This document shows, in pieces, positions 12,397 through 63,984 of a stretch of DNA of 64,000 nucleotides. The DNA is taken from positions 23,093-87,092 of the forward strand of contig JAAELU010000141.1 in assembly GCA_024226255.1 (NCBI GenBank), given 5' to 3'. Origin of the DNA: a bacterium. GTDB lineage: Bacteria; Actinomycetota; Acidimicrobiia; Spongiisociales; UBA5794. The notes under the pieces are model-generated. The model saw only the letters and a list, made by a program, of their open reading frames with translations. It was not told where the DNA came from and did not search any database. The position numbers and the translations under genes are program-made. How positions within the stretch are numbered: position 1 is the stretch's first letter; each line of letters opens with the position of its first letter.

Positions 12397-12439
12397 GTGG
12401 TCTCCCTCCCATGTTGTGGTTCAGCCTACGTAACCAACC

Positions 12440-14509: not shown

Positions 14510-14588
14510 ATCCGACGCTGAAGGTCAACGAAACCGCCAGGGCAAATCCCCAGCCGAGGCGTGAGTTTCTTCTCTTTGTCGAGCTCAA
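14337..14588 (-). CDS. candidate small Cys-rich lipoprotein (83 aa)
   Basis: AGGGAG-N6-TTG start at 14588. Lipobox LAVSLTFSVGC. Eight Cys in CASCSSSLGACDSTGRYCGDDYTQEECREW...QTCDERG. GC3 about 75%. Confidence 0.4.
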   Translation of the reverse strand: MSSTKRRNSRLGWGFALAVSLTFSVGCASCSSSLGACDSTGRYCGDDYTQEECREWDDTRVNNENWYFHPGQTCDERGKNSTS

Positions 14589-42442: not shown

Positions 42443-42495
42443 GCCCGAACGCTAGCGGGCCGGTCCCGGCCCACTGCTACGATTGCGGCTCGAAC

Positions 42496-42569
42496 GGGCG
42501 CTTAGCTCAGCGGAAGAGCGCTGCCTTCACACGGCAGAGGTCACTGGTTCGAACCCAGTAGCGCCCACC
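42496..42569 (+). tRNA. tRNA-Val (anticodon CAC)
   Basis: gggcgcttagctcagcggaagagcgctgccttCACacggcagaggtcactggttcgaacccagtagcgcccacc. Confidence 0.9.
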
Positions 42570-42803
42570 GATCCAGAAACGTATGCGTGGCTCGTTTTCT
42601 CAATGCTGTCAAAGGGTGTCGGGTAGTGCCCGGTTGGACGATCTCTTAGCCGCGGATAGTCCCCGATCACCTGAGATATGCGAGTGCTGCGGACACCATG
42701 CGGACACCAGGTACGTGAGGCGAAACCGTGAGGTCCTGAGAGGGTGTCTTCATGTGCGGGCCCGGGATGCGCGCCACCATGGGTTTCTCCGATTTGGCAA
42801 TGG

Positions 42804-43655
42804 CTAGGCCGACATTGGCTCGGCAGAGGCCAAGGTGGCGATCTGGTCGATGACCTCAGATGCCCGGAGCACGCCGTTGTGCCCGTGGCCCTGTGTGCTC
42901 ACGAGCCCTGCATCCCAACGGTTGGCCAGCAGCTTCGCGTGTTCAATCGGTACCATGTCATCATCAACATCGTGGATGAGCATTGTGCTGTCGGGGACGT
43001 TCATGTCGAGTATCCCGGCTGGAATCCGCTCCCATATGTCCTCGCCAAACCTGTTGTCCATCGATTGCTCAACAGCCTTTGTGACCACCGGCCGAAGCCG
43101 CAGGGTCGCCGCGAAGGTTTCGAGAACTCGACGGGGCCGTAGCTCGGGGGCCAGCAGCACGAGCCTGTCGGCTCTGAGCGAACCTTGCATCGCCACGGAT
43201 GTGGCCATTGCTCCCACTGAGTGTGCGACGACGATGTCGACCTTGCCAAGCGCGTTTCCAGTGATCTCGATGGCGTCCGCCATCTCGAGGGGGTTAGTGG
43301 AACGTCCGGCCTCGATGCCGTGGGCTGGGAGGTCGATGACCACACATCGGTAGCCTTCCTCTGTGAGCCGCAAGGCGATCCGGCGGTATTGTCGCGACGA
43401 CCCGGCCCATCCGTGGATCAGGAGAGCCGTCCGCGAACCATCACCTATCTCATACCCGTGGACCACTGATCCAGCCGACTCGAAGGTGATCCTCCGTGCC
43501 CCCGGTGGAATCTGCGGTGACCGAGGTCGAGCGAGCGGGAACGGCGTGAACCACAGATATGTGGCGATACGCCCTGCAAGCTTTGGGGCAACAAACGAGA
43601 GGGCTCCGAGGCCGACGCTTGTCGTCTTCTGCGCTACCGCCTCTCTTCGACTCAT
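42804..43655 (-). CDS. alpha/beta hydrolase
   Basis: LLIHGWAGSSRQY; nucleophile elbow VVAHSVGAMA; ATGA coupling to an upstream small ORF. Confidence 0.7.
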   Translation of the reverse strand: MSRREAVAQKTTSVGLGALSFVAPKLAGRIATYLWFTPFPLARPRSPQIPPGARRITFESAGSVVHGYEIGDGSRTALLIHGWAGSSRQYRRIALRLTEEGYRCVVIDLPAHGIEAGRSTNPLEMADAIEITGNALGKVDIVVAHSVGAMATSVAMQGSLRADRLVLLAPELRPRRVLETFAATLRLRPVVTKAVEQSMDNRFGEDIWERIPAGILDMNVPDSTMLIHDVDDDMVPIEHAKLLANRWDAGLVSTQGHGHNGVLRASEVIDQIATLASAEPMSA

Positions 43656-43837
43656 GCGACCCTCTTGACCTGAGGTCGGTCTTCTTGGGTCAACCGGGCG
43701 GGCTCTGCGATCGGACCAACGCCGTAGTTGAGATCGGCGATGACCTCTTCGGGCGAGAGGTCGAGTTCAAACCCATCGAGATTGATCGCGATCCTTCCTT
43801 TTGCACCCTGTCGGTCTCGGTTTCTGAGCTTCTGCAA
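43652..43837 (-). CDS. candidate small protein (61 aa) co-transcribed with the hydrolase
   Basis: GGAGGAG RBS 2 nt before ATG 43837 (a very short spacer, atypical); MLQKLRNRDRQGAKGRIAINLDGFELDLSPEEVIADLNYGV...; the stop overlaps the hydrolase ATG. Confidence 0.35.
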   Translation of the reverse strand: MQKLRNRDRQGAKGRIAINLDGFELDLSPEEVIADLNYGVGPIAEPARLTQEDRPQVKRVA

Positions 43838-43850
43838 CATGGCTCCTCCA

Positions 43851-43902
43851 TAGTGAGTTGCGATACACAACTCACTATTGCACAGTCCGTTGCAAAGTGC
43901 AA
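43851..43902. promoter_or_regulatory. Operator-like palindromes in the divergent promoter region between the small-ORF/hydrolase operon and the HxlR regulator gene
   Basis: TAGTGAGTTG-cgataca-CAACTCACTA (a perfect 10-bp inverted repeat, 43851-43877) and TTGCAC-N13-GTGCAA (43878-43902). Confidence 0.55.
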
Positions 43903-43923
43903 CCCACTAAGATATGATGATGG

Positions 43924-44440
43924 CATGGCATCGACAGAGTTGAGCGAAACGGGCACCAACCGCTACGACATTTTCGACTGCTCCGTGGCGCGGACACTCG
44001 AACACGTCGGAGAGCGATGGACATTCATGGTCCTACGAGACGCGTTCTACGGCATCCGCCGTTTCGACGACTTCCAAGCCAGTCTCGGCGTCGCGAGAAA
44101 CATCCTGACCAAACGTCTCGCCAAGCTCGTGGACGCCGGGATCATGCGCAAGGAGCCCTACCAGGAGCATCCGACCCGGTACGAGTACGTGCTAACTGAG
44201 AAAGGGCGGGATCTTGTGCCGGTCCTCACCTCCCTTCTCGCATGGGGCGACAAGTGGGAGACGGAGAACGAGCCGCCGGTGCGACTAATCCACACCACCT
44301 GTAAGAACGTGATGCACAGCCAGGCCGTCTGCTCCGAATGCGGCGACGAGATCAACGCCTTCAATCTGCACCTGGACCCAGTCCCCCAGATCGTGATCGA
44401 ACGGGTCGTCAAAGCGAAGCTGGCAGCCCACACGACCTAA
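43924..44440 (+). CDS. HxlR-family (MarR-like) transcriptional regulator with a Cys-containing C-terminal extension
   Basis: CSVARTLEHVGERWTFMVLRDAFYGIRRFDDFQASLGVARNILTKRLAKLVDAGIMRK HxlR helix-turn-helix; C-terminal CKNVMHSQAVCSECGDE. Confidence 0.7.
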
Positions 44441-44449
44441 CCGCGGGCT

Positions 44450-44490
44450 CTGGTTTGGGCTTGATAGGTTCGAACCCAGTAGCGCCCACC
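44450..44490 (+). repeat. Tail-only copy of the repeat: a 24-bp direct repeat of the tRNA-Val(CAC) 3' end (ggttcgaacccagtagcgcccacc, 44467-44490)
   Basis: Identical to 42546-42569. The preceding ctggtttgggcttgata resembles the repeat-body terminus (ggttgctggcgcggataa). Confidence 0.8.
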
Positions 44491-44673
44491 AGAGGCATCG
44501 TTGCAGGGCAACGGGACCGGTCGAAGAAGCAGCCAGTCCGTCTGACATTCCCCAACGAGCCGAACTACGGTGACCTGTGGGTGCGACGACTCGTCACCCA
44601 CATGTACGAGCACCTTGGCCAGGTGATCGCGATCGTGCCTCCCTGCAGCCGCTGACCGACCGATCGGAAGATT

Positions 44674-45261
44674 ATGAGCATGTCCGACTACACACCGACC
44701 TTCTTCCCCGGACCCGCCGACTTCCGAGCGTGGCTCGACGAGCACCACGCGACGATCGACCACCTTTGGGTGGGCTATTACAAGAAGGCGACGAACAAGC
44801 CGTCCGTGACCTGGGAAGACACGGTCGCTGAAGCGCTGTGCTACGGATGGATCGACGGGATCCGGAGGTCTCGCGACGACGAGAGTTACATGGTGCGCTT
44901 CACACCTCGCAAATCGAGGAGCGTCTGGAGCCAAAGAAATATCGACCTCGTCGAACGGCTCACCTCGGAAGGCCGCATGAAAGCTGAGGGTCTCGCTGCC
45001 TTCGCCTTTAAGGATGTGCACCCAGACAGTGGGTACGCGACAGCGAAGTTCGACGGAGCGTTGACGGACCAGATGATCTCCCGATTCAAGGCGACCACGG
45101 GCGCATGGGAGTTCTACCAAGAGCAACCGCCCGGCTACCGCCGGCAAACGGCACGTTGGGTGATGAGCGCGAAGCGTGAGGAGACTCGAGAGCGGCGGCT
45201 GGCGACGCTGGTCGACGACTCGGGGAACCGACGGCGCATCAAGCAGCTTCGTAGGGGCTGA
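44674..45261 (+). CDS. YdeI/OmpD-associated family protein (DUF1801-like)
   Basis: 195 aa, containing HLWVGYYKKATNKPSVTWEDTVAEALCYGWIDGIRR and a C-terminal REETRERRLATLV; family-level assignment. Confidence 0.5.
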   Translation: MSMSDYTPTFFPGPADFRAWLDEHHATIDHLWVGYYKKATNKPSVTWEDTVAEALCYGWIDGIRRSRDDESYMVRFTPRKSRSVWSQRNIDLVERLTSEGRMKAEGLAAFAFKDVHPDSGYATAKFDGALTDQMISRFKATTGAWEFYQEQPPGYRRQTARWVMSAKREETRERRLATLVDDSGNRRRIKQLRRG

Positions 45262-45437
45262 AGGTGGCAGTTGGCGGGACGTCGTTGCCAACTAGATGGG
45301 CGATACGACTGATCTGGAGGCAGACCAACACGAGCCCGACCGGCCTGGACCTGCCCGCAGGTTCCTCAAACGACGCCGCGGCAAGCTGCCGAGTGTCGGG
45401 TGGGGCTAGGCTCGGATACGGCGACTGGAGGGTTCTG

Positions 45438-47330
45438 GTGAACGACGTATTCGTCTGCCACGCATCTGAAGATCGGTCTTTCGCCGAGGCGGCTGTGGCG
45501 GCGCTCGAGGCCCGCGGGATTCGGTGCTGGATCGCCCCGCGAGACGTTCCTCCCGGTTCGGACTATGCGGGGGCCATCCTGTCGGGGATCAGCACTAGCC
45601 GAGTATTGCTCCTCATCTTCTCCCACTGGTCGAACGAGTCGCCGCACGTGCCCCGGGAAGTGGAGCGGGCAGTCAATCGGAAAATGCCAATAGTCCCGTT
45701 CCGTTTGGATGAGGTCGCTCCGAGCGGCCCCCTCGAGTATTTCATCAGCGGTGCCCAATGGTTTGATGCCGCCTCGGGCAGCCCCGATGACCACCTCCCG
45801 GCTCTGGTCGACGCAGTCAGGCGGCTGGTATCCCCCGCAGCCACGCCAGCCCCCGTGGCCGAGCGGGAGGACTTCAGCCGCGAAGTGCGCGAGCAACTGG
45901 AGACGCTGGTCTTGCGGTACGGCACCGAGTTGGCCGGTGACGCGCGCCGGCTGCAAGCGGTGCTCCGTGACATGGTTGGAGAACATCCAGCCGAGATTTC
46001 GGCGCTGGTCACTGCAGCGGAGGAAGGGGTGCCGGAGATGTTGCTGCACTCCTCGGACCCAGGAGCCTCGGCCACCCGGGAACGCCTGGCCCGCCGCTTG
46101 AAGGAAAGGCGTGCGCTCGGCATGGAGGCGGCGGAGTGGGCGGTAGCGTCGTGGGCACGTGCCCTCCGGATCCCACCGTCCCCTTCTCAGCCGCCGCTGG
46201 ACCTCGGGGAGACGAAGCCGGCCTCCGCCGCCGAACCAGAGAAGACCCGTCCCGTGGAGATAGACGAGAGTCTCACGCCCGCCGTGTCATCGGGCCAACC
46301 AGCGGCTCCGCCCGTGCCGCCGGCGAAAGAGGTCCCCCGAGCAAGTGCCGAGCCGGCGCAGGCGGCACCGTCAACCCCGCCGCAACCCCGGGTAGCGCAA
46401 TCGCCGCCGCGTCCCGACGGGCGTCCCGCCTGGATCTATGCGCTGCTTGCCGTGATCGGCGTCGCGCTCGTTGTTGGAGCCGTCGTTCTGTTCTCCGGGG
46501 ATGAGGCGACCGGTCCGGCAGCGACCGATGTCACCACCACCACCGGAGTCACGACCAGCGGGCTCGGCACTACGCCGAGCACGCTCACTCCGACCGCACT
46601 ATCGGCTGACTCCGAACGAATCGTTGCCCGTGGGCAGGTACGGATCGGCGTTCGGGACAACCCCTTGCCGCCCCTCACAACCTTCGAGGCGGATCTCTCG
46701 CAGGAGGTTGTCTCGCGTCTGTTCGGCGACATCGCCGTGGAGTTGGTGCCGGTCGCCGTCCTGGACCGCTTCGCCGTTCTCGAGGCTGGTGATGTCGACT
46801 TCCTGATCCGTTTGACGACCCACACCACGAGCCGGGAGGAGCTGGCGTCGTTCACCAGCCCATACTTCCTCGATGGATTGGCGTTCGCATTTGGGCCGGA
46901 CCGCGGGATCTCCTCGATCAGCGGTCTGGCCGGTCTGACGATCGGAGTGTTTGACGGAACAAGCACGGAACTGGAGGTCCGGCAGGCCTTGGAGGGGAAT
47001 GGAGTGGGTGCAACGATCGTCGGATTCGACGACACCGACGCCGTATCCAATGCTCTCGTAGCCGGCGAAGTCGACGCCATTGGCGTGTATTGGGCGCAGG
47101 CTCTCAACTACGTAGAGACCCTCGGTGTCGACGCATTCCTCTACACGCTGCTAGAGCCGCTCACAGTCGTGGTGTCACTTGAGAACCCCGGCTTGCGCGA
47201 CGATCTCGACCGGGTCTTGCGGGAAATGGTGGCCGACGGGACCTGGCGACAACTGTATGAACTCCGGTTCGTGGAACCGCCGCCCTGGAGCGAGGATGAG
47301 ATGTCGACCTTCCCGCCGGTCGACCGATGA
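45438..47330 (+). CDS. TIR-domain single-pass membrane protein with a C-terminal extracytoplasmic solute-binding (SBP_bac_3-like) domain
   Basis: GGAGGG-N5-GTG start. TIR_2 pattern VFVCHASEDRSFAEAAVAALEARGIRCWIAPRDVPPGSDYAGAILSGISTSRVLLLIFSHWSNESPHVPREVERAV. A helical middle region, a Pro-rich linker, TM WIYALLAVIGVALVVGAVVLF, then an SBP_bac_3-like domain (FLIRLTTHTTSREELASFTSPYF, LTIGVFDGTSTE, VAGEVDAIGVY). Confidence 0.75.
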   Translation: MNDVFVCHASEDRSFAEAAVAALEARGIRCWIAPRDVPPGSDYAGAILSGISTSRVLLLIFSHWSNESPHVPREVERAVNRKMPIVPFRLDEVAPSGPLEYFISGAQWFDAASGSPDDHLPALVDAVRRLVSPAATPAPVAEREDFSREVREQLETLVLRYGTELAGDARRLQAVLRDMVGEHPAEISALVTAAEEGVPEMLLHSSDPGASATRERLARRLKERRALGMEAAEWAVASWARALRIPPSPSQPPLDLGETKPASAAEPEKTRPVEIDESLTPAVSSGQPAAPPVPPAKEVPRASAEPAQAAPSTPPQPRVAQSPPRPDGRPAWIYALLAVIGVALVVGAVVLFSGDEATGPAATDVTTTTGVTTSGLGTTPSTLTPTALSADSERIVARGQVRIGVRDNPLPPLTTFEADLSQEVVSRLFGDIAVELVPVAVLDRFAVLEAGDVDFLIRLTTHTTSREELASFTSPYFLDGLAFAFGPDRGISSISGLAGLTIGVFDGTSTELEVRQALEGNGVGATIVGFDDTDAVSNALVAGEVDAIGVYWAQALNYVETLGVDAFLYTLLEPLTVVVSLENPGLRDDLDRVLREMVADGTWRQLYELRFVEPPPWSEDEMSTFPPVDR

Positions 47331-47715
47331 TTCTCCGCCGGCTGGATTCGGGCGGGCCCTGTGGCGGACTCGCGATGCCTGGGCTCCGCTCGGAGGTGCA
47401 GTCGTGAATAACCGCAAATCGTCCTTGGGTGAGCCGAGAGACGCCTGAGCGCGCCGGAGCGCTAGAGCCCGGAAGGCGGGAATCGGCTTCGGCACAACTG
47501 GCGTATCCAGGCCGTCCGTAGAAATCGAGCCGGAAGGAGATCGGCACGCAGACCCGTCGGGGGCGACGCCATTTCGGGCGCTGCTATGTTCCGAGACCTT
47601 CTCAGTGGCGCCCACAAATGTCAGCCTGCTGGAGCTGGTCAAGGAGCGCGCTCACTACGACAGCAGCTCGGTGATGCAATAGCGGACCGGAAGTCAGCCA
47701 TAGTGGGGATGACAA

Positions 47716-48540
47716 ATGGCAACCCGACGAAGGCGAAGACTCTTGGGCGTGGTGGGAGCGTTAGCTCTGTTGCTGCTCGCGGTGGCCGGCCTATGGGCGG
47801 GCCAGCGTCGACTGATCTACTTTCCGGATGGCGATACTCCGTCTCTCGATCTGGTGGGGCCCGGCTGGGTGGAGGTGTCGTACGCCACTTCGGACGACCT
47901 CACGCTCACGGCCTGGTATCACGCCCCGAACCCCGGCCGCCCGATCGTGATTGTTCTCAACGGCAATGCGGGCAACAGGGGCGATCGGGCCGCGCTGGGC
48001 CGAGGTCTGAACGCCGCCGGTTTCGGAGTGCTACTCACTGACTACCGCGCGTATGGAGGTAATCGCGGGAACCCCACGGAGGACGGACTGGCTCTCGACG
48101 CGCGGGCTGCTGTGGGCTTTGTCGCGGAGCGGACATCGGGTAGTCCACTCGTCTACTTCGGCGAATCACTCGGCGCCGCGGTCGCCGTCGAACTGGCGGT
48201 CACTCACCCGCCGGCTGCGCTCGTGCTCCGTTCGCCATTCACCTCACTGGCCGACATGGGACACGTTCACTACCCGTGGTTACCCGTCGGGCTTCTTCTC
48301 AAAGATCGGTATCCGTCGCACGAGCGCATGGAATCGGTTCATGCTCCAACTCTCGTCATCGCCGGCGCGGCCGACTCCATCGTGCCCATCGAGCAGAGTC
48401 GGGAGATCTATGCGGCTGCTCCCGAGCCGAAGCACTTCATGATGATCCCCGGTGCCGACCACAACGATCCCGAGTTGGGGCACGGTGCGAGCATGATCGA
48501 CACCGTCACGGCATTCATTGCCCGGTCAGTAGCGGACTAG
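47716..48540 (+). CDS. alpha/beta hydrolase (membrane-anchored)
   Basis: N-terminal TM LLGVVGALALLLLAVAGLWA; nucleophile elbow YFGESLGAAVAV; a C-terminal Asp/His region. Confidence 0.65.
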   Translation: MATRRRRRLLGVVGALALLLLAVAGLWAGQRRLIYFPDGDTPSLDLVGPGWVEVSYATSDDLTLTAWYHAPNPGRPIVIVLNGNAGNRGDRAALGRGLNAAGFGVLLTDYRAYGGNRGNPTEDGLALDARAAVGFVAERTSGSPLVYFGESLGAAVAVELAVTHPPAALVLRSPFTSLADMGHVHYPWLPVGLLLKDRYPSHERMESVHAPTLVIAGAADSIVPIEQSREIYAAAPEPKHFMMIPGADHNDPELGHGASMIDTVTAFIARSVAD

Positions 48541-48727
48541 CCGGCAGCCAAACGGGGCACCACGCCCGCGCAGTCAGAAACGCATCTGTCGGTCGTTTCG
48601 TCAACCCTGACGATCCCGAAGGCTGGATTGGAACCACCGTACCTCGAATGTCGCAAGGGCGGCTATCTGCTGCCGCTGCCGGATCGGACCGAGTGAAATG
48701 GCAAGGACACGTACCAACGAGGGAACG

Positions 48728-49957
48728 ATGCTTTCCAGCAAGTTCACAATCGGAGTTGTAGCTTGTGCACTCTTGGCGATCGCATGTGGTGGCGCCGGCA
48801 CGAGTACGATCGTGTTGCCCGGAGAGGCGGAGCCGCCCGCACTCTCAGACACGTCGGATGGTGCGGCGCCACCCGCCCAACCTCTCTTCCCTGAGGGCCC
48901 CTCGGCTCTGCGCGAATTCGGCTCGGACCAGTTCCCGACGCCCCTGGTCGAGCTGTCGGACATCATCGCGGGCGGGCCACCCCCTGACGGCATCCCACCG
49001 ATCGACGATCCCGTTTTTGTCGGCGTTGCCGAGAGAGTGGATTCCTATCGGGACAACGCTCCGGTCGTTGCGCTCGAGATCAACGGCGACGCGAGGGCGT
49101 ACCCGGTTGCTGTCATGATCTGGCACGAGATCGTCAACGACACGGTCGGTGGAGTACCGGTCACCGTCACATACTGTCCGCTCTGCAACTCGGCGGTCAC
49201 CTACGGACGAGTGATCGACGGCACGGAGACCACCTTCGGGACGTCGGGTCTGCTGTTGGCCTCGGCGCTTGTCATGTACGACCGGGCAACCGAATCATTG
49301 TGGACCCACTTCGACGGACGGGCCGTCGTCGGCGTGCTGACCGGCACGCCACTGGATGTGTACGGATCTCCGTTGATGGCGTGGCGCGATTTCCGGACCA
49401 ACTATCCACATGGGCTCGTGCTCGACGAGACCAAGACGGGCCACAGCCGTGACTACGGCCGCAATCCCTACTTCGAGTATGACGATCCCGACACCCGGCC
49501 GTTCTTGTACTTCGGCGATGTCGATTCCAGAGCGCGAGCGAAGGAAAGAGTTGTGGGCGTGGCATTCGAAGGCGTGGACGTGGCATACAGTCTTCAGTCG
49601 CTCAGGGGAGAGGGACCCGCCGTCACTCCGGTCATCGTCGGGGGATCCGAGCTGGTGGTGCTCTGGGTGCCGGGTCAGGCCAGCGCGCTCCACGGTCCAA
49701 GCGTGCAGTACGGCCGCGACGTCGGCAGCGTTGGCGTGTTCGAGCCAATCGTCGCCGGCCGGCGACTGACGCTGGCGGCCGATGGCGACGGTTTCGTCGA
49801 CGCCGAGACCGGCACACGGTGGTCGATCACCGGCGCGGGCGTGTCGGGACCGCTCTCGGGGGACCAACTGCCACACATTCCGCATTTCGACACGTTCTGG
49901 TTCGCCTGGTCGACCTATCGCCCGGGCTCGGAGCTCGTGGGAGCGGTTGGCGAATAG
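48728..49957 (+). CDS. DUF3179-domain lipoprotein
   Basis: Lipobox GVVACALLAIACGG; DUF3179 hallmarks DGIPPIDDPVFV, AYPVAVMIWHEIVND, VTYCPLCNSAVTYG. Confidence 0.65.
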   Translation: MLSSKFTIGVVACALLAIACGGAGTSTIVLPGEAEPPALSDTSDGAAPPAQPLFPEGPSALREFGSDQFPTPLVELSDIIAGGPPPDGIPPIDDPVFVGVAERVDSYRDNAPVVALEINGDARAYPVAVMIWHEIVNDTVGGVPVTVTYCPLCNSAVTYGRVIDGTETTFGTSGLLLASALVMYDRATESLWTHFDGRAVVGVLTGTPLDVYGSPLMAWRDFRTNYPHGLVLDETKTGHSRDYGRNPYFEYDDPDTRPFLYFGDVDSRARAKERVVGVAFEGVDVAYSLQSLRGEGPAVTPVIVGGSELVVLWVPGQASALHGPSVQYGRDVGSVGVFEPIVAGRRLTLAADGDGFVDAETGTRWSITGAGVSGPLSGDQLPHIPHFDTFWFAWSTYRPGSELVGAVGE

Positions 49958-50261
49958 CCGTCGCCGGGTTCTCGTGGAGACAGTCTTCCTCCCAGCCACT
50001 GGAGCCTCCGAACTGTGCTGGATCCAAGGCATCGACCCCAGAGATGGGACCGCCGCGAAACTAGGGAAGCCGCTGATCGTCGACGCCGCATTGGTACGGC
50101 TGAGCGCGATTCCTGGCGCACGTGCCTTCCCAAGCCATTAGAGACCTTCGGCTCTACACGCATTAGAAGGCATATGTAGGAATAGGGCCAAACACAGAGC
50201 CATTCTTGCAGCAGGATCCGTTCCTGCGGGTCGCGCTGCCCGTATAGAAAGGACTGCTCGC

Positions 50262-50510
50262 ATGACTCTGGCGGACGACACAAGCGTGTCTTTGACATTG
50301 GATCTGAAGGGCATGCTCTGCCCGATGCCGGTCGTCGAGATTTCGAGGGCGATCAAGCAAGTTGAAGTTGGCCAGATAGTCGAGGCTACGGCAACGGATC
50401 CTGGAGTGATGGCCGACATCCCGGCGTGGTGCCACAGCACAGGCAACACTCTCATGGCGTTGGAAAAGGCGGAGTCTCACTTCGTCTTCAGGGTCCGGCG
50501 CGACGCTTGA
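50262..50510 (+). CDS. tusA: TusA-family sulfurtransferase
   Basis: DLKGMLCPMPVVEISRAIKQVEVGQIVEATATDPG (CPxP active-site motif). Confidence 0.75.
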   Translation: MTLADDTSVSLTLDLKGMLCPMPVVEISRAIKQVEVGQIVEATATDPGVMADIPAWCHSTGNTLMALEKAESHFVFRVRRDA

Positions 50511-50525
50511 CCTGGATGGCAATGT

Positions 50526-51173
50526 ATGACATTCGATTCCGCTCTGCACTTCGTTGAGTTCGAGCTCCAGATCATTGCCCTGACTTGGATGGCCCTGCTC
50601 TACACCATCAAGGCAGTTCAGTTATCCAGATTGCCGATGCCCTGGGAGCAGGGTCCCGCTAGAGGCAGCCGAGCCGCCGGTTCGGCGCGCTCATACCTCG
50701 GGATCTTCGTTCCGCAGAGCCGGGAGAGCTCGCGGCTCCACCCATGGCGCTGGGTCGAATTCGGCGCGTACCATGTCGGGGCGGCGGTGGCGATCCTCAT
50801 CACGTTCACCTTGCCATTTGCTCCCGGCCTCATGACGCGTGCCGTTTCGATCGTGTGTGCCGTTTTGATCGCGCCGGCGTTGCTGGTCGGCTTCGCCAAG
50901 ATCTACAGACGCCTGGCGCAGCCGGACCTGCGCTTCATCAGCTCGCTGGACGATCACGTGTCACTGATCACGCTGCAGTCGTTCTTCCTCACTGCGGTGA
51001 TGGTCTTGCTGTTCGACACTCCCGGCTGGCGCATGGCCTACTTCCTGGTGGTGGCGGCATTCCTGTTCTACGTACCGTTCTCGAAGATCAGCCACTACGT
51101 CTACTACGGGTTCTCTCACTTCCTGACCGGAAGCCGCTACGGCTGGCGGGGCGTGACACCGGGGAGGACGTGA
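50526..51173 (+). CDS. NarI/DsrM/HdrE-like heme-b membrane anchor
   Basis: Five TM helices with conserved His (HFVEFEL, AYHVGAAV, SLDDHVSLI, SKISHYVYYGFSHF). Lies immediately upstream of, and overlaps, the HdrD-like gene. Confidence 0.55.
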   Translation: MTFDSALHFVEFELQIIALTWMALLYTIKAVQLSRLPMPWEQGPARGSRAAGSARSYLGIFVPQSRESSRLHPWRWVEFGAYHVGAAVAILITFTLPFAPGLMTRAVSIVCAVLIAPALLVGFAKIYRRLAQPDLRFISSLDDHVSLITLQSFFLTAVMVLLFDTPGWRMAYFLVVAAFLFYVPFSKISHYVYYGFSHFLTGSRYGWRGVTPGRT

Positions 51174-51174
51174 C

Positions 51175-52494
51175 ATGACGAGCGACATCGAAGTCCCGAT
51201 CACTGACCGGGCCAAGGAGGAGCTGGAGAAGCGGTTCAACCGGTTGGTGGGTGTATCGGCAACGAACCTGTGCACACACTGCGGATGGTGCATCGACTCA
51301 TGTCACGTCTACCTGGCCACGGGCGATGTTCGTCTGTCCCCGGTCGGCAAGGCGGACCTCATTCGGCGCCATTACAAGCGCTCGCACGACTGGATGTCCA
51401 AGGTGTTTCCGCGTTGGACCGGGGCGAAATCGGAGATCACCGAGAACGAGTTCGACGACTGGCTCGAGGCCGCCTTCCAGGCCTGCACACTCTGTGAGCG
51501 TTGTGTCGTCAACTGCCCAATGGGTGTCGAGACGCCGCAGCTGCTGGCGGCAGCGCGCGGCACTCTGACGGCCATTGGCAAGGCTCCCGAGATCCTGGAT
51601 CAGCTCGCCAACGCTGCGATTGCGCGGGAGGAATTCCTGGACAGCTTCTCTGAGTACTTCCTCGACCAGATCACCGTGCTCGAGGCTGAAGTCCGGGAGA
51701 AGCTGGACGACCCGACGGCGCGGATCCCGGTGAATGAACCGGCGGAGATTCTCTACGTGCCGCTGTCCGGGGCGCACACGATCGTCCCCCAGGCGATCAT
51801 CTTCAACGCGGTTGGTGCCTCATGGTCGCTGTCAATGTTCGAAGCCTCCAACTATGCGATGTTCCTCGGTGATACGGCCCGGGCCAAGAAGATTGCGATG
51901 CGAGTCATCAATGAGGCTGAGCGCCTCGGGGTGAAGGAACTCGTCATCTCCGAGTGTGGCCATGCATATACAGCCTTCCGTTGGGAGGCGCCTAAGTGGT
52001 TCGGAGGCCCGCTGCCCTTCAAGGTGCGCAGCATCGTTGAGGTGCTCGATGAGTACGTGGCCGAGGGCCGACTGCCGATAGATCCGAGCATCAACTCGGA
52101 GCCACTCACCTATCACGACCCGTGCAACCTGGGTCGCAAGGGTGGGGTCTTTGACGAACCGCGCCGGGTAATCGAGGCGGCGTCGACAGACTTTCGTGAG
52201 ATGACGCCCACCAAGGCCCAGAACTTCTGTTGCGGTGGAGGTGGTGGCCTCGTGGCTCAGCTCGACTGGCGCGACCAGCGGATCGCCTTCGGCGGCCCCA
52301 AAGCAGACCAGATTGCCGAGACCGGAGCCACCCGGGTCATCACGTCGTGTGACAACTGCCGCCACCAGATAAACGAGCTAGGCGACAGCTACGGCCTCGG
52401 TTTGTCCGAGGTTGTGTCTGTATCCGAGCTGCTCGTGGATGCACTCCTCGCAGCTCGTCAGCCGGTACAACAACTTGCCAAGGAGGAAATGTGA
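51175..52494 (+). CDS. HdrD/DsrK/GlpC-like Fe-S protein (2x[4Fe-4S] plus two CCG domains)
   Basis: CTHCGWCIDSCHV and CTLCERCVVNCPM ferredoxin motifs; Cys-rich CCG motifs YHDPCNLGRKGG and QNFCCGGGGG. Confidence 0.7.
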   Translation: MTSDIEVPITDRAKEELEKRFNRLVGVSATNLCTHCGWCIDSCHVYLATGDVRLSPVGKADLIRRHYKRSHDWMSKVFPRWTGAKSEITENEFDDWLEAAFQACTLCERCVVNCPMGVETPQLLAAARGTLTAIGKAPEILDQLANAAIAREEFLDSFSEYFLDQITVLEAEVREKLDDPTARIPVNEPAEILYVPLSGAHTIVPQAIIFNAVGASWSLSMFEASNYAMFLGDTARAKKIAMRVINEAERLGVKELVISECGHAYTAFRWEAPKWFGGPLPFKVRSIVEVLDEYVAEGRLPIDPSINSEPLTYHDPCNLGRKGGVFDEPRRVIEAASTDFREMTPTKAQNFCCGGGGGLVAQLDWRDQRIAFGGPKADQIAETGATRVITSCDNCRHQINELGDSYGLGLSEVVSVSELLVDALLAARQPVQQLAKEEM

Positions 52495-53009
52495 GCGATG
52501 ACGACGGTCGCAGGAAGATGGCGTTGATCGCCTCTCAGGGAACCCTCGATTGGGCCTATCCGCCCTACATCCTGGCGTCCACAGGGGCCGCGATGGATTG
52601 GGATGTGCGGATCTTCCACACCTTCTACGGCCTGACACTTCTCAAGAAGAAGCTCAAGGCGAAGGTAGCGCCATACGGCAATCCTGCGATGCCCATGAAG
52701 ATGCCCTTCGGACCGCAGGGGTTCCAGTCGATCGAATGGCCGATCCCCAACATCGTCCAGACCAACGTTCCGGGCTTCAATCGCCTGGCGACGGTGCTGA
52801 TGAAGCGCACTTTCAAGAAGAAGGGCGTCCAGTCGGTCGAAGCCATGCGCGACATGTCCCTGGAATTAGGTGCCACCCTCATTGGGTGTCAGATGACGAT
52901 GGACGTATTCGGCTTTGATCTCGAGGAATTCATTCCCGGAGTCGAGATCGCCGGTGCGGCCGCCTTCCTTGCGTTCGCCGCCGACGCCGACATTCAGTTG
53001 TTCGTCTAG
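52491..53009 (+). CDS. DsrE/DsrF-like family protein
   Basis: LIASQGTLDWAYPPYILASTGAAMDWDVRIFHTFYGLTLL; ATGA-type overlap with the HdrD-like gene. Confidence 0.5.
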   Translation: MSDDDGRRKMALIASQGTLDWAYPPYILASTGAAMDWDVRIFHTFYGLTLLKKKLKAKVAPYGNPAMPMKMPFGPQGFQSIEWPIPNIVQTNVPGFNRLATVLMKRTFKKKGVQSVEAMRDMSLELGATLIGCQMTMDVFGFDLEEFIPGVEIAGAAAFLAFAADADIQLFV

Positions 53010-53054
53010 GGAGGACTTGACGCGGCAGGCGCCGTGCGATGGAGGCCGCCGGCA

Positions 53055-53214
53055 ATAGGCGGTCAGGAAGTCGTGCCGCAATTGCGCGTGCCGCGTTTCT
53101 TCTGCGACGTGAAGTCATTTGAACTCTCTGGGCGGCCCTTTCCGGTGGTCTGGTGGCGTCTGCGGTGGCACCGTTTGGTTGCGCGGATAAGGCTCGAGCC
53201 CAGTAGCGCCGACC
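53055..53214 (+). repeat. Copy d of the tRNA-Val-3'-end-terminated repeat (degenerate)
   Basis: Body features ...gcgtgccgcgtttcttctg..., tgaactctctgggcggc, tggtggcg and gcgcggataagg; the 3' end is ggctcgagcccagtagcgccgacc (53191-53214). Confidence 0.65.
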
Positions 53215-53233
53215 TAGATAGCCGAGCGTCGGC

Positions 53234-54028
53234 TCACGATCCCTGGCGTCGGACTGCCTGTGCGTCGACCCAGCCCGACAGACCACTGGCAGGATCGGTC
53301 AGATGGGCCCAGCCACTGTCCTCCCGCTCGAGTTGGTACCACTGCGCCGGCTCGGCGGAGCCGATCACGGCGTCCGTATTCTCCAGGCCGTACATCGGGG
53401 TGGGTTGCTCGACGAACACCCATTCGGGTTGCGCTACTGGTGACTTTGGAGGGGCTGGTGCGGCCGCGGCCCGTTCGACGGTTGGGGGTGCCGGGGCCTT
53501 GGCCTTCTTGTGGCTCGAAACAGGCTGGGCCACCTCTGTATCCACGGCCGGGGCGGCGGGCACGTCGGGAAGCGGCACGGGAGCTGGGCGTGATGCAATC
53601 CAAGCCTCCTCAGCCCGCATTTCCTCTTCGACGCTGTCGAGCATCGTGGCGCCGGCTCGTGCCAGGAGGCGCGTTGCCTGGACGGCAGCGGCAAGGGTTC
53701 CGGCAGTTGTGGTTGCGCCGTCCAGCCACAGTCGAGCAGTGATCTCCTTTTGGTCCTCAGCGGCGTCGAATTCAGCCAGGTCAGCCCGGCCGAGGAGCAG
53801 TCCGTCGAGAGCAAAGCGGACCCGACTGTCGACCTGGTCCGATGGCCCCGACGGCCAGCGCGCCGGCGACGAGGCAACCAATCGAATCGCTGGTCCGTCG
53901 ATGATGATCCCGACGCGGTCGCCATCGATTGACGCCTCGTAGCGGAGCGGATCGGCCGTCTTCGAGACGCTGAGCGGTCCGAATCCCGTGTCGACGAGTG
54001 CCTCGAGTAGGTCGGTTGTCATCGCCAT
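53234..54028 (-). CDS. YbjN-like N-domain plus Pro-rich linker plus bacterial SH3-like C-domain protein
   Basis: 264 aa; the C-terminal region WVFVEQPTPMYGLENTDAVIGSAEPAQWYQLEREDSGWAHLTDPASGLSGWVDAQAV resembles SH3b. Confidence 0.45.
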   Translation of the reverse strand: MAMTTDLLEALVDTGFGPLSVSKTADPLRYEASIDGDRVGIIIDGPAIRLVASSPARWPSGPSDQVDSRVRFALDGLLLGRADLAEFDAAEDQKEITARLWLDGATTTAGTLAAAVQATRLLARAGATMLDSVEEEMRAEEAWIASRPAPVPLPDVPAAPAVDTEVAQPVSSHKKAKAPAPPTVERAAAAPAPPKSPVAQPEWVFVEQPTPMYGLENTDAVIGSAEPAQWYQLEREDSGWAHLTDPASGLSGWVDAQAVRRQGS

Positions 54029-60000: not shown

Positions 60001-62328
60001 CTAGCGCGCCACCATCACAGTGAATTCTGCGAAGCCGGAGCCGGATGAGTTCTCGCGGCCTTCGAGGAGGAGCCGGACCGAACGGCCCGCGACTTTGGGC
60101 AGGACGAGGACGTCGGGATCGGGCGTGCCCGGGAGTTCGACGAACTCCTCGAATACGATCTCCCCGTCGGCGTCGATCACCTGGATCGTGACGGCCGCGA
60201 AGCCGTGGTTGGTACGGCGGCTGACTGTCGAGTTCTGAGCATTGGAGACCATGACTACCTCTCCGATGTAGTCGTCTTGGGTACCGGTCCACTGGAAGGT
60301 GGAGTAGGTCCCGTCGCCGCTCGATGAGATCCACGATGTTGTTATGTCGCCGTCAGTGGCCTTGCTGGCTGCGAACGAACCGCACAGGCGCGACGATGCA
60401 GTCACGGTGCCCTCATCGGTGGCGTCATGGTCGGCGACGACCACCGTGGTGGTAGTCGTGCTGGTCGTGGTGGAGGTGCTGGTGGTAGTCGGGGCGGTGG
60501 TGGTCGTAGTGGATGAGGTCGTGCTCGTCGTCGCGGCAGTTATGTCATCGGAGTCGGCCGAGGTGTCCGAGCCGATGGTCCTGACGAATGCCAGTCCAGT
60601 AGCGATGTCCTGCAACACGAACTGAGTGAGCGGCTCCTCGCACGGTTCGAGTTCGACTATGGCTGCCGGGTCGAAGGCGGGCCAGGCGATACCGACGAAC
60701 GTCGGGCTCGGCACCGGTACCGGTAGTGTGAGCGGACTGCCGGACGCGCACCGTACGCGGGGCTCTGCGGTCGCTCCTACCAGGACCGCGGTTCCCTGCT
60801 CTAGCAGAGCCTGCCGGGAAACCACGCGGCCGTTGTCGAGAACATGTGTGGTGACTCGCACGTCCCGGGTCAGGTGCATCGGCGTCAGGCCGGCGACGAA
60901 GGCGGCGATATCTTGGAGAGCGATGCCCTGCGCATCAGCCCAGACTTGCGAGAGCGCCGTGTCCCCATTCAGCTCGTCGAGGAGAATGCTGCTGTTGCAA
61001 CCGGCGCTCCCACGGTCGGCTGCATAGATCAGCTCATCCGAGCCCTTCACCAATGCTACCTCGGAGGCGCCCTCTGAGTGGAGGGTGGTTGTCGGGCCTT
61101 CCATCGCGTGGGTTTCTCCCATCGCCAGCAGGCTGGCCGTGAATACGTGCTCGATCGCGCCCGCCGCTTCCAGGTAGACGTTGTCGGAGGCAAAGGACAC
61201 AGCATCCTTCGAGCCCTGATTGGCAATCCACGCCGCGACGCCACCTACCAGAACGGCTACAAAAGCAGCACCACCGACGAATGCGGCAACCTTGTTGCGC
61301 GTGCCGCCGTTCTTCCCCCGGCTCTGCTGAATGGGCGTCGGTGAGGGTTGGGGCCTTTCCTCTGCCCTGACGGTGTCCGGGAGTGGTGGTTGTGGCGGTG
61401 GTGTTTCGCCGGTGGCGGCCACGGTGTCCTGGGGCGGTGGTTGAGGTGGTGGTTGTGGTTGGACTGGCGGTGTTTCGCCGGTGGCGGCCACAGTCTCCTG
61501 GAGTGGTGGTTGTGGTTCTGGTTCGACTGGTGGTGTTTCGCCGGTGGCGGCCACGGTGTCCGGAAGTTCATCGGCGGCGGCTGGGGGCGGCTGCGGCGCG
61601 GCCGCTTGCTCCATCCCAAGCGCATAGACCCAAGCACCAACCGCCCAGCGTGAGGCATCCTCGGCCAGCGCCCGGTTCTGTTGCAGGCGACGGACGAGAC
61701 GTTCTGTGAGCTCCGGGGTCAGCCCTTGCGACGATTGACGGAGGGCGGCACCGACCCCCTCCTCGGCACCTGCAAAGAGTGCCGCCACCTCGGCGCGGTG
61801 GTCTCCGGCGACGTCCCGCAGCAGAGCTCGCACCCGGCGGGGATCGTCGGTGAGCTCGGGACCGTATCGGTCGACCAGATCGCGCAGGGTTTCCCTCGTA
61901 GCCTGACGGGCATCCTCTCCGGCTTCCCCGTAGATCCGCAAGCGAATGATCTTTGCCAGCTCGACAACATGCTCCTCGGTTGTGAGGTAGGTGGCGTCGA
62001 GCCATTGGGCACTGCTGATGAAGTACTCGAGCGATGCCGACGGCTCGACGTGTTCGATGCGGAAGGGGATGATGTCAATGCCCCGGGACACAGCTCGCTC
62101 AACCTCGCGACTTACATGCGGCGACGCGTTCGAGAAGTTGGAAAACACCAGGACGAGGGCCTTGGCGCCTGAAATACCGGCCACGATCGCCTGGGCGTAG
62201 TCGGCCCCCGGCATGACATCGCGCGGCGCCACCCAGCAGGTGATTCCGCCTTGCTCGAGGCCGGCCACCACCGCATCGGCGATCGCTCGATCCTCCGAGG
62301 CATGGCAGACGAATATCTCACGCGCCAC
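60001..62328 (-). CDS. TIR-domain single-pass membrane protein (paralog of 45438-47330) with a different ectodomain: unknown domain, Thr-rich linker and a discoidin/F5-8-type-C-like C-terminal domain
   Basis: MAREIFVCHASEDRAIADAVVAGLEQGGITCWVAPRDVMPGADYAQAIVAGISGAKALVLVFSNFSNASPHVSREVERAV TIR_2 pattern. The middle helical region is homologous to the first TIR protein. PPQP repeats; TM VAAFVGGAAFVAVLVGGVAAWIA; TTSTTSSTTTTT linker; a C-terminal beta-sandwich-like region ...DGDITTSWISSSGDG... Confidence 0.75.
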   Translation of the reverse strand: MAREIFVCHASEDRAIADAVVAGLEQGGITCWVAPRDVMPGADYAQAIVAGISGAKALVLVFSNFSNASPHVSREVERAVSRGIDIIPFRIEHVEPSASLEYFISSAQWLDATYLTTEEHVVELAKIIRLRIYGEAGEDARQATRETLRDLVDRYGPELTDDPRRVRALLRDVAGDHRAEVAALFAGAEEGVGAALRQSSQGLTPELTERLVRRLQQNRALAEDASRWAVGAWVYALGMEQAAAPQPPPAAADELPDTVAATGETPPVEPEPQPPLQETVAATGETPPVQPQPPPQPPPQDTVAATGETPPPQPPLPDTVRAEERPQPSPTPIQQSRGKNGGTRNKVAAFVGGAAFVAVLVGGVAAWIANQGSKDAVSFASDNVYLEAAGAIEHVFTASLLAMGETHAMEGPTTTLHSEGASEVALVKGSDELIYAADRGSAGCNSSILLDELNGDTALSQVWADAQGIALQDIAAFVAGLTPMHLTRDVRVTTHVLDNGRVVSRQALLEQGTAVLVGATAEPRVRCASGSPLTLPVPVPSPTFVGIAWPAFDPAAIVELEPCEEPLTQFVLQDIATGLAFVRTIGSDTSADSDDITAATTSTTSSTTTTTAPTTTSTSTTTSTTTTTVVVADHDATDEGTVTASSRLCGSFAASKATDGDITTSWISSSGDGTYSTFQWTGTQDDYIGEVVMVSNAQNSTVSRRTNHGFAAVTIQVIDADGEIVFEEFVELPGTPDPDVLVLPKVAGRSVRLLLEGRENSSGSGFAEFTVMVAR

Positions 62329-62402: not shown

Positions 62403-63413
62403 TCAAGCTCGGGCACGCGAGACCCGCCAACCCGTGTGCTCCTCTGAAACGGCTGCCTCGGCAGTGTCCACAAACGTTGCCCACTCGTCCTCGTCCTCGA
62501 TCGGCTCCAGGATCGATTCCATTGCCAGGAGCTCGTGGGCAGTGTTCGCGTATGCACGGGCCTGCCGGTCGTATCGCCTGACCCCTGTCCACATCGTGAT
62601 CAATGCCGCCACGAAGCCGGCAACTCCGAGGATGTTGACACCGAAGGAGCCCAAGCCCTGGAGCAGGCCGAAGAGAATCGCCACCGCGCTGGCGAGCACG
62701 AACATCGCGTCCCAGAAACGAGCCAGGTGTTCGTTGGTACGGGCGCGGTCTGAGTACCACGATGCCTGATCGTCCACGCGGCCGGTTGCGTACGCCGCCT
62801 TACGCTGCTCTAGCCCGGTATGGCGTAACTGCCGCATCGCCGGTGTGATCTGGTAGTGAGCGCCACGGGTGGGGGGCGTATGCAGGCTGCCGAGTTCGGC
62901 GAGCAGCTCCCACAGGCGGGCGTTGAAGAGTTGATCCGCCTCCTTGTCGGTGCCTTCTTGCAGAGCGAACGGAACACCGCCTACGGAGTATCGCCACGAC
63001 AGACTCTTGACCGATTCGGCCGCCAGCCGCGCGTCGTACCACGATGCTTCCAGGCTGGACAGCCGTGAATAGACCCGCAACGCCGCGACGGCGAGGAAGG
63101 CTCCTACCCCCACAATGGCAATCTGGTCGACCCCGGTGGCGGCAGCCGCCGTACCTGAGGTGACGCCGATCAGCAGCAGGACGACCTGCGCCTTGATGAC
63201 GCCGAAGAACATGGTGCGTGAGCTGATCGATTCCTTGTCCGCGGCCTGGAAGAGGGCGGGCAAGTCGGAATGCTCCAGCACCATCTCATGGGCTCGTGTG
63301 GGATCCTCCAATCGAACCGTGCCTCCCGCCGCTTTCGTTCCCGTCCACGCTAGTGCTCCGATGGCGGCGGTCGTCGCGGAACTGCGTTTTGGGCTACCGG
63401 CGCTTGAGGACAT
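62403..63413 (-). CDS. tandem 2TM SLATT-like (SLATT_1 plus SLATT_3 / DUF4231-like) membrane protein
   Basis: Two repeats of a TM hairpin plus amphipathic helix with W..RY signatures: FFGVIKAQVVLLLIGV...IAIVGVGAFLAVAALRVYSRLSSLEASWYDARLAAESVKSLSWRY, then FWDAMFVLASAVAILFGLL...ILGVAGFVAALITMWTGVRRYDRQARAYANTAHEL. The start is uncertain (20-nt overlap with the cyclase gene). Confidence 0.5.
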   Translation of the reverse strand: MSSSAGSPKRSSATTAAIGALAWTGTKAAGGTVRLEDPTRAHEMVLEHSDLPALFQAADKESISSRTMFFGVIKAQVVLLLIGVTSGTAAAATGVDQIAIVGVGAFLAVAALRVYSRLSSLEASWYDARLAAESVKSLSWRYSVGGVPFALQEGTDKEADQLFNARLWELLAELGSLHTPPTRGAHYQITPAMRQLRHTGLEQRKAAYATGRVDDQASWYSDRARTNEHLARFWDAMFVLASAVAILFGLLQGLGSFGVNILGVAGFVAALITMWTGVRRYDRQARAYANTAHELLAMESILEPIEDEDEWATFVDTAEAAVSEEHTGWRVSRARA

Positions 63414-63984
63414 ACATGGGGAAGGCGCCGTAGTCCTTGGCGGTGTCGATATGACCTACGTACTCGGGAATCATGCCGGGAACCGGGTCGAGTGCCAAGA
63501 GCGCGGCGGACGAAGCTGTCATGTAGACCTCGCCGGGCGGCGTCCGCGGCTCGATGCGGGCGGTTCGGATCACATGGGTGCCGAAGAACGAAGGCTCCCG
63601 CCTGATCGGGTCCGTTCCCGCATACACGGGCCCGGCGTGTACACCTATGCGCAATCCCATTTCGGGCAAGTCCAACCTGTTGAGGTCGAGTGCGCCGAAT
63701 GTCCGCTGCATCGCCAGCGCCCCGCTGGTGGCTGCGCTGACCGTCCGATATACGAGATAGAGCCCGTCTCCCCAGCTGTTGCGATAGAGCACGTCGTCAC
63801 CAGACGCGTCGATGGAGTCTGCAAGCGCTCCCATCACCGACTCAAAGAAGGTCGGTATCTGTCGCTCATCCAGAGTGCTGAAACCGTGAAAATCGGCAAA
63901 TACCATCGCTCGGAGGTCCCGGGGTGGACCCGCAGAATCCGCCACACGATTGGCCGGGATGTCCGGGTGGCTGCAGGGAACCAC
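63394..63984 (-). CDS. stand-alone class III nucleotidyl cyclase (adenylate/guanylate-cyclase catalytic domain); the 5' end may extend beyond the window
   Basis: CHD motifs MVFADFHGFSTL (metal Asp), SWGDGLYLVY (second Asp), LRIGVHAGPVYAG and GTHVIRTARIE (transition-state Arg). The canonical base-specifying Lys and Asn positions are substituted. The frame is open upstream of GTG 63984 to the sequence end. Confidence 0.7.
   Translation of the reverse strand: MVPCSHPDIPANRVADSAGPPRDLRAMVFADFHGFSTLDERQIPTFFESVMGALADSIDASGDDVLYRNSWGDGLYLVYRTVSAATSGALAMQRTFGALDLNRLDLPEMGLRIGVHAGPVYAGTDPIRREPSFFGTHVIRTARIEPRTPPGEVYMTASSAALLALDPVPGMIPEYVGHIDTAKDYGAFPMYVLKRR

Follow-up and report, generated by a model that had tools for sequence, protein, structure and literature searches.

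In a 64-kb window (contig JAAELU010000141.1) of the metagenome-assembled genome (MAG) of an uncultured Acidimicrobiia-like actinobacterium, an intact gene for tRNA-Val(CAC) is followed by a 1.9-kb cassette that ends at a second, perfect copy of the last 24 nucleotides of the tRNA gene. Our analysis indicates that this repeat is probably an attL/attR pair produced by integrase-type site-specific recombination at tRNA-Val(CAC). It also shows that both tRNA-Val genes of the window head tandem arrays, one of which includes the enclosed islet as a member, a context that an earlier note on this DNA had missed. The 24-mer GGTTCGAACCCAGTAGCGCCCACC is found in direct orientation at 42546-42569 and 44467-44490; exact search confirms the identity of the two copies that the earlier note had reported, and dinucleotide shuffles yield no match to the 24-mer even with three mismatches allowed. 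Because the bases flanking the two copies differ on both sides (T/A upstream and G/A downstream), the repeat is exactly 24 nt long. Its first two bases are the last two of the 5' T-stem strand, and it finishes where the acceptor stem does. Integration into a tRNA 3' end, as the note had proposed, is supported by a cognate direct fragment whose start falls in the T-loop region, where the crossovers of tRNA gene (tDNA) islands are most often located (PMC4383910). Furthermore, the right junction of the islet recurs in contig L013 (contigs and loci used for comparison are numbered L), an independent assembly of a 99-100% identical strain (GCA_024449835.1), and the islet is therefore not an assembly artefact.

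Five tRNA-Val 3' fragments, all on the plus strand, exist in the window (7489, 9832, 12587, 44467, and 53191). A mismatch-tolerant search with the 24-mer gave 7489-7512 and 53191-53214, a profile made from the surrounding sequence added 9679-9855 and 12576-12609, and a direct scan confirmed all five. Measured against the tRNA that heads the respective array, the mismatches number 1 (7489), 4 (9832), 3 (12587), 0 (44467), and 3 (53191). The tRNA identity begins at the same base in all five, and the sequence in front of it is GCGGATAAGG (GCGGA(T/G)(A/G)A) or, at the islet, TTGATAGG (TTGATA), as opposed to the GGTCACT of the tRNA itself. The family consensus GTTTGGGCGGATAA precedes every tRNA-Val fragment other than that of the islet. 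Four of the five fragments lie within a unit of about 163 nt composed of left arm, right arm, and core, which reads, from the tRNA side, ...ATAGCCGAGCGTTG..., GTGCGG, TTTGGGCGGCTCG, GCGGATAAGG, and core. Its homology is full length among 7349-7512, 9679-9855, and 53060-53214 of the window and the metagenome contigs L023 and L024.

Since the five fragments share their start and the family context, both tRNA-Val genes are seen to head tandem arrays of small islets. In the GAC array, tRNA-Val(GAC) (7274-7348) is followed by a unit that is "empty" (arms and core without cargo), the core at 7489, an RTX/Ig gene with a second unit, the core at 9832, three open reading frames (ORFs) without family assignment, the core at 12587, and a left arm. 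In the CAC array, the order is tRNA, 1.9-kb islet, core at 44467, 8.7-kb islet, core at 53191, and the start of a left arm. The internal junctions (53117-53240, 12560-12653, and the end of L024) run right arm, core, left arm, which is the order expected for tandem integration of one element family. Divergence is lowest, in either array, at the core next to the tRNA, with 0 and then 3 mismatches at CAC and 1 and then 4 and 3 mismatches at GAC. Such a gradient is consistent with new elements entering at the tRNA and displacing older ones outward, as in the islands of Prochlorococcus (bioRxiv 10.1101/2020.12.28.424599).

The unit is not limited to this genome. A metagenome scan with the pattern GATA(N)GG-core retrieved three contigs, two of which overlap (L022/L023); the units in these contigs are 70-85% identical, with tandem copies in L024 and a second arm and core 3 kb farther on in L023. 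We observed "empty" units at 7349-7512 and 9679-9855 of the window, at 793-957 of L023, and at 1330-1494 of L024. They are conserved at 70-85% between metagenomes, stand behind both the GAC and the CAC isoacceptors, and are in tandem in L024. Because independent deletions are unlikely to leave the same arm-only unit, the "empty" units may be miniature nonautonomous elements. An intrinsic terminator, AACCCCTGGTAGAGGGGGTT, comes after the fragment at 931-955 of L023 and is similar to the one located directly after the intact tRNA-Val(CAC) of a relative (L029; see below). Such a displaced fragment with a terminator matches the picture of a native 3' end and trailer moved to the far side of the insert (PMC4383910). 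A separate observation concerns the best-conserved arm block, TGGGCGGCTCG (7428-7440, 53130-53140, and equivalents), which is complementary to the 3' acceptor strand AGCGCCCA and mimics a tRNA 5' end.

The explanation that we favor is as follows. The stretch of tRNA-Val(CAC) from the T-loop to the 3' end would have recombined with an identical core on an incoming element, so that the element-borne copy of the core kept the tRNA intact and the second copy marked the far end. The incoming element would be a member of the family whose arms mark the other four fragments, and the arrays would have been built through repeated integrations of one such family with conserved arms next to the core. The 1.9-kb islet, with its 0 mismatches, would then be the tRNA-proximal and probably youngest cell of the CAC array. 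It would also be a fossil, having no recombinase, no left arm, and only some 15-25 nt of a right arm, and it could move now only if an integrase encoded elsewhere recognized the bare core, or by homologous recombination.

At the right edge of the islet, a profile match at 44453-44489 scores 19.8 bits versus 14.1 bits for the 3' end of the tRNA itself (+5.7 bits), and the arm is recognizable over only about 15-25 nt; family arms are clear at the four other fragments. The left spacer contains a tandem 11-nt repeat, TGCGGACACCA (twice, at 42688-42709), followed by GCGAAAC. Inspection by eye revealed two GACAC(A/C) motifs, 11 nt apart from start to start and followed 11-17 nt later by GCGAA(A)C, near tRNA-Val/fragment junctions in four loci: the window (42688-42727), L029 (about 4030-3995, minus strand), L023 (about 686-730), and L024 (about 1157-1200). 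These pairs may serve a second element family as arm-type sites for protein binding, or they may be promoter or operator sequences.

The islet carries three ORFs, all of which are either assigned or conserved as nonrecombinases. The earlier note had described the cargo as a small protein, an alpha/beta hydrolase, and an HxlR-type regulator with palindromic operators between the genes, and this description holds, with the small ORF now redefined as one of 62 aa. An alignment of four orthologs from four genomes reveals a conserved core in its product, INLDGFELxLSPEEVIADLNFGVGPI...RVA, which has no Pfam or NCBIfam match. About 60 homologs of the hydrolase with 80-86% identity were found in metagenomes. 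The regulator is assigned to the HxlR/DUF24 family by its PF01638 score (80.2 bits versus a cutoff of 20.8), in agreement with the divergent operon and the putative palindromic operators. Palindrome 1, ATAGTGAGTTG-N7-CAACTCACTAT (43850-43878), has perfect 11-nt arms (43850-43860/43868-43878), and palindrome 2 is GTTGCAAAGTGCAAC at 43889-43903; a promoter-like site is predicted at 43890-43918. Both palindromes are retained in the homologous cassettes of L014, L017, and L015, and in L014 and L017 HxlR orthologs of 84-86% identity adjoin the same hydrolase. Judging from this arrangement, the HxlR/DUF24 protein is probably a repressor that binds the two palindromes and controls the divergent operon of the 62-aa ORF and the hydrolase. 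The regulator also shows similarity to the redox regulators RrpB and RrpA, with scores of 61.5 and 35.6 bits that fall short of the curated NCBIfam cutoffs of 175 and 185. Together with what is known of the family, this weak similarity hints at an electrophile or an oxidant as the signal. The cargo of the islet would accordingly form a self-contained stress-type module.

The genes of the second, 8.7-kb islet of the CAC array encode YdeI/OmdA, a TIR-SBP_bac_3 protein, a second hydrolase, a DUF3179 protein, one ORF product without family, a CCG/4Fe-4S protein, and DsrE; Pfam detects no recombinase among them. Its last 120 nt or so (53072-53190) are a well-preserved right arm, and in the order of events that we propose it would be older than the 1.9-kb islet. 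The coordinates of all features are collected in Table 1.

Table 1. Features of the two tRNA-Val arrays in the 64-kb window
Feature	Coordinates	Strand	Evidence
tRNA-Val(GAC) with "empty" unit of about 163 nt (left arm, right arm, and 24-nt fragment 7489-7512 with 1 mismatch)	7274-7512	+	ARAGORN; nhmmer
Second copy of the unit, behind the RTX/Ig-domain gene (7768-9639); putative att fragment 9832-9855 with 4 mismatches	9679-9855	+	nhmmer, E = 1.3e-19; Pfam for the RTX gene
Third fragment in the GAC array (12587-12610, 3 mismatches), with GCGCGGATGA in front and left-arm sequence (GGGAGCGTTGATCCGGTCGC) behind	12587-12653	+	nhmmer; direct scan
tRNA-Val(CAC), intact; last 24 nt (42546-42569), probable proximal att core (attL)	42496-42569	+	ARAGORN; Rfam tRNA, 68.8 bits; 24-mer search
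Left noncassette spacer, 156 bp	42570-42725		blastn homology to L014/L015/L017 begins only at 42726-42784
Alpha/beta-fold hydrolase, 283 aa, cargo	42804-43655	-	Pfam Abhydrolase_6/1, Hydrolase_4
Conserved 62-aa ORF; stop overlaps the hydrolase start (ATGA)	43652-43840	-	Alignment of four orthologs
Putative divergent promoter/operator region with two palindromes	43841-43924		Repeat search; conserved in L014/L017/L015
HxlR/DUF24-type winged-helix regulator, 171 aa, with C-terminal Cys-rich extension	43925-44440	+	Pfam HxlR, 1e-22
Vestigial right (P-type) arm, GGTTTGGGCTTGATA, resembling family consensus GTTTGGGCGGATAA	44441-44466	+	nhmmer; alignment test
Probable distal att core (attR), perfect copy of the last 24 nt of the tRNA	44467-44490	+	24-mer search; also in independent assembly L013
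Second islet of the CAC array, 8.7 kb	44491-53190		Pfam; arm homology to 7372-7488 and L023/L024
Degenerate putative att core (21/24 match), then left-arm start TAGATAGCCGAGCG (53215-53228)	53191-53214	+	Mismatch-tolerant search

Several results weigh against the explanation that we favor. (i) The edges of the islet are poor: the left 156-bp spacer shows no similarity to the family left arm (nhmmer gave no match to the unit model), and the right arm is weakly significant in an unanchored local alignment test (p = 0.016). (ii) The cassette (HxlR, divergent 62-aa ORF, and hydrolase) recurs, with 83-86% identical DNA, in at least three genomic contexts elsewhere, namely, between a BTAD regulator gene and a MarR gene (L014), between leuA and an alcohol dehydrogenase gene (L017/L018), and, without HxlR, in L015/L016; no tRNA gene or att core was found near any of these. 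The match to the window breaks off near the ends of the genes, at 42726-42784 (some 20-80 bp beyond the stop codon of the hydrolase) and at 44442 (the HxlR stop), and not at the att sites; the remaining 156 bp to the left and 24 bp to the right belong to the integration site, not to the cassette. Because the cassette also occurs at non-tRNA loci without att sites, this cargo need not have come in by the integration that made the repeat, and the islet is best read as a decayed, cargo-only remnant similar to a cis-mobilizable element (CIME). (iii) In codon usage and GC content, the genes of the islet cannot be told apart from core genes, and we rejected the idea that the islet is foreign by composition. 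(iv) No integrase, resolvase, or transposase emerged when virtually every sizeable ORF of the window was scanned with Pfam. (v) Patterns of arm and core matched nothing in phage, plasmid, or IMG/VR collections, and no intact parent element was found. (vi) Among the relatives compared, a strict empty site, in which the tRNA is joined to the flank at 44491, was not found.

The statement of the earlier note that no integrase remains is borne out by these scans for the islet as for every sizeable ORF of the window, and Pfam and NCBIfam searches of all islet ORFs detect no recombinase domain. Likewise, no autonomous relative of the element appeared in viral contigs, phages, plasmids, or the metagenome scan, and matches to the hydrolase on plasmids are only about 30% identical. 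In the collections used and a limited literature search, no integrative element was identified for Acidimicrobiia-like actinobacteria. Some candidates were discarded. A 610-aa ORF beside the 12.6-kb junction has no Pfam match, but its HExxH motif is suggestive of a metalloprotease rather than a recombinase. Thirteen IMG/VR matches to a 16-mer are chance hits without nhmmer support, and an nhmmer match in L004 is spurious, lying inside a protease gene. The interpretation of 44491-44655 as the truncated C terminus of a DinB-family protein was dropped, as it finds no support in Pfam, NCBIfam, or the PDB.

The cassette itself has a history that is visible in other contigs. Positions 1-126 of L013 differ from window positions 44097-44222, inside HxlR, by 16 mismatches in 126 nt, and the next 1,315 nt, which span the core, YdeI, and the first part of the TIR gene, are a perfect match. 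This mosaic boundary reflects either a homologous-recombination exchange of the cassette allele, with a breakpoint inside HxlR, or a chimeric contig. In L014, a 76-bp fragment (4441-4516) that is 93% identical to the interior of the hydrolase gene (window 43219-43294) lies just beyond the HxlR gene; its sequence suggests a trace of an earlier tandem or rearranged copy of the cassette. In one genome, for which co-occurrence is inferred, the hydrolase is 75% identical and GPAT is 64% identical to the window proteins, a hint, though not a proper test of transfer, of stronger conservation in the cassette than in a core enzyme.

The earlier note had suggested a search of related genomes for an empty tRNA-Val(CAC) site. 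In this search, a tRNA without the islet was found, a strict empty site was not, and the one close strain (L013) is occupied. In that strain (GCA_024449835.1, with 99-100% identical flanks) the occupancy is seen at the right junction, and the contig with the left flank, L001, ends inside the tRNA. Exact-protein lookups placed YhhN and YdeI only on contigs of 1.4-2 kb from one assembly. Relatives with GPAT of 75-81% identity keep the gene order AMP-ligase, NifU, DivIVA, GPAT ... OmpA-like, YhhN, and in three of the four that we anchored by GPAT (L025, L026/L027, and L028) the contigs end at or before YhhN. The fourth, L029 (GPAT 78% identical), crosses the tRNA: its homology to the window runs from 29.8 kb to 42.49 kb, including YhhN, and stops just past the tRNA, whose 3' 24-mer is identical; next come an intrinsic terminator and an unrelated gene for a 1,219-aa protein. 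Neither the cassette nor a second 24-mer core is present in the approximately 4 kb examined past the tRNA. Therefore, conservation of the repeat and its cargo in all relatives, which the note had named as grounds for giving up its interpretation, is not what we see. Because the right flank of the window was nowhere found joined to the tRNA, L029 represents an alternative occupancy rather than a strict empty site.

Two further anchors were of little use for this comparison. Among GTDB genomes, no relative of YhhN exceeds 51% identity, and none lies near a tRNA gene. YdeI/OmdA (44674-45261) has thousands of homologs, with copies of 78-90% identity in MAGs labeled Myxococcota, Acidobacteriota, Planctomycetota, and Acidimicrobiia; these lie in unrelated contexts, none beside a tRNA among the loci examined, and YdeI is thus useless as a synteny anchor. 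Its unusually high conservation across phyla suggests frequent horizontal transfer. When the empty site is reconstructed (42445-42569 plus 44491-44535), a cloverleaf within a long leader/trailer stem is predicted (-78.9 kcal/mol). Only 1.9% of random trailers perform equally well (p about 0.02), but other nearby positions score better, and we count the fold as weak support. The stem around the cloverleaf corresponds to a 24-nt inverted repeat, 79% complementary, between 42460-42483, just 5' of the tRNA, and 44497-44520, just 3' of the distal core.

Other explanations for the islet were weighed. One is compatible with an att origin of the repeat and departs from ours only in the way the cargo arrived: the att cores would predate the cargo, and the cassette would later have replaced the interior by homologous or illegitimate recombination instead of through an integrase. 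"Empty" units do exist (7349-7512, 9679-9855, and L023/L024), the arms of the islet are missing or truncated, and the homology to cassettes elsewhere, which lack att sites, stops near the gene ends; the L013 mosaic looks like a recombination breakpoint inside the cassette. However, that mosaic could stem from chimeric metagenome assembly, the two perfectly matching (24/24) copies suggest that the core recombined recently, given that the older cores of the arrays are degenerate, and no donor-side structure was found that would explain so precise a replacement of the arms. We therefore consider this route possible but rather unlikely. We give still less credence to the idea that the two tRNA-Val genes anchor an integron-like system, in which integrase-less cassettes of 0-9 kb, including the "empty" 163-nt units, would be inserted, stacked, and reshuffled by a dedicated recombinase encoded elsewhere. 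If it were true, the conserved arm unit would be a portable recombination site, and its conservation across metagenomes and behind both isoacceptors would reflect an active family of trans-mobilized miniature elements, not independent decay.

The rejected ALTERNATIVES are tandem tRNA duplication with decay, a structured-RNA unit, and chance or misassembly. If tRNA-Val had been duplicated in tandem, with 5' decay of the second copy and insertion of the cassette in between, this would account for the conserved right-arm block TGGGCGGCTCG, which can base-pair to the 3' acceptor strand in the manner of a tRNA 5' end, and for the tandem unit copies in L024. Against this, the tRNA identity ends at the same base in five of five fragments, with the same non-tRNA sequence upstream across genomes; the middle of the supposed pseudo-tRNA has no tRNA similarity and is about 11 nt too long; units stand behind both GAC and CAC, with a core that matches the local tRNA each time; and ARAGORN and Rfam detect no tRNA in the units. 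Such a duplication is accordingly very improbable. Hardly more probable is that the tRNA fragment and the approximately 140 nt upstream form a functional structured RNA or regulatory element, the repeat of the islet being a by-product of its spread. The unit is indeed conserved across genomes, and a consensus fold pairs the TGGGCGGC block with the 3' end of the core. Nevertheless, RNAalifold gives a covariation term of +4.72 with no variation in the key helix, so that covariation lends no support; there is no Rfam match; a T-arm cannot form, as ATAAGG is not complementary to CCAGT; and the islet's own copy lacks almost the entire unit. Finally, the window derives from a MAG contig, and repeats can mis-join contigs, but the lack of any match in shuffled sequences, the identical junction in an independent assembly, and the shared context of four further fragments make a chance repeat or an assembly artefact practically negligible.

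Site-specific integration of a member of the arm family, the explanation that we favor, places the islet among known systems of genome plasticity. It shares with the tDNA islands cataloged by Islander/TIGER (Hudson, Lau & Williams 2015, PMC4383910) an intact tRNA gene and a displaced cognate 3' fragment in direct orientation on one replicon, marking the ends; crossover in the T-stem/T-loop, the commonest class; and tandem arrays at one tDNA. It differs from them in lacking the tyrosine-recombinase integrase that Islander requires inside an island, in its size (1.9 kb, far below the typical size), and in its nearly erased arms. In being bounded by attL and attR without recombination or conjugation modules of its own, it resembles the CIMEs known from site-specific accretion of integrative and conjugative elements and integrative and mobilizable elements in Streptococcus (PMC5704250; ICEberg 2.0, PMC6323972). 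The proposed origin of CIMEs is a deletion within an integrated element, and they occur in tandem with related elements (PMC5704250, PMC6323972). In our case the match is one of structure only, since no related autonomous element was found, and the host, an Acidimicrobiia-like actinobacterium, and the target, tRNA-Val, are different.

The tycheposon islands of Prochlorococcus (Hackl et al., bioRxiv 10.1101/2020.12.28.424599) likewise consist of successive cargo elements beside a tRNA gene, parted only by partial tRNA copies, and elements are stacked in this way at both tRNA-Val genes of the window. In those islands, new arrivals push older ones outward, leaving degenerate remnants and scattered partial tRNAs, and the cargo is niche adaptive (10.1101/2020.12.28.424599). 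Tycheposons are, however, defined by their own tyrosine or large serine recombinase and a replication module, none of which exists in the islet or the window; they belong to another lineage and have other att arms, whereas here even "empty" arm-only units recur. Integron arrays are similar in that small units of one to few genes are arranged serially, with a recombination-site-like repeat at the end and no recombinase inside the cassettes. The feature is nevertheless not an integron: neither IntI nor attI was found here, and each repeat reproduces a tRNA 3' end in direct orientation, with conserved flanks and without a supported hairpin, unlike the imperfect palindromes of attC.

Some other features of the window touch the arrays. 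The ORFs behind the second core of the GAC array (9700-14900) have a GC content at third codon positions of 0.64-0.69, versus about 0.73, and no Pfam match, which is consistent with a foreign origin of that part of the array. TIR and effector genes lie at 45264-47330, 60001-62328, 62403-63413, and 63394-63984, with one TIR gene inside the 8.7-kb islet. They encode two TIR proteins (one fused to a periplasmic solute-binding domain, the other to DUF6777), a SLATT_3/SLATT_1 effector with two transmembrane segments, and a nucleotide cyclase fragment, a content that looks like anti-phage defense or signaling.

Taken by itself, the islet is an ordinary integration scar of an already known kind, here in a little-studied lineage: a textbook scar with a small stress-response cargo and a clean example from Acidimicrobiia-like actinobacteria. 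What goes beyond this is the "empty" 163-nt unit, which recurs across metagenomes and behind both tRNA-Val isoacceptors. The fragments with arms (at least five), the shared arm-only units, and the differing cassette alleles of near-identical strains identify the two tRNA-Val genes as hot spots for the turnover of genes, and the unit of about 163 nt provides a sequence handle for finding the parent element and its integrase in complete genomes.

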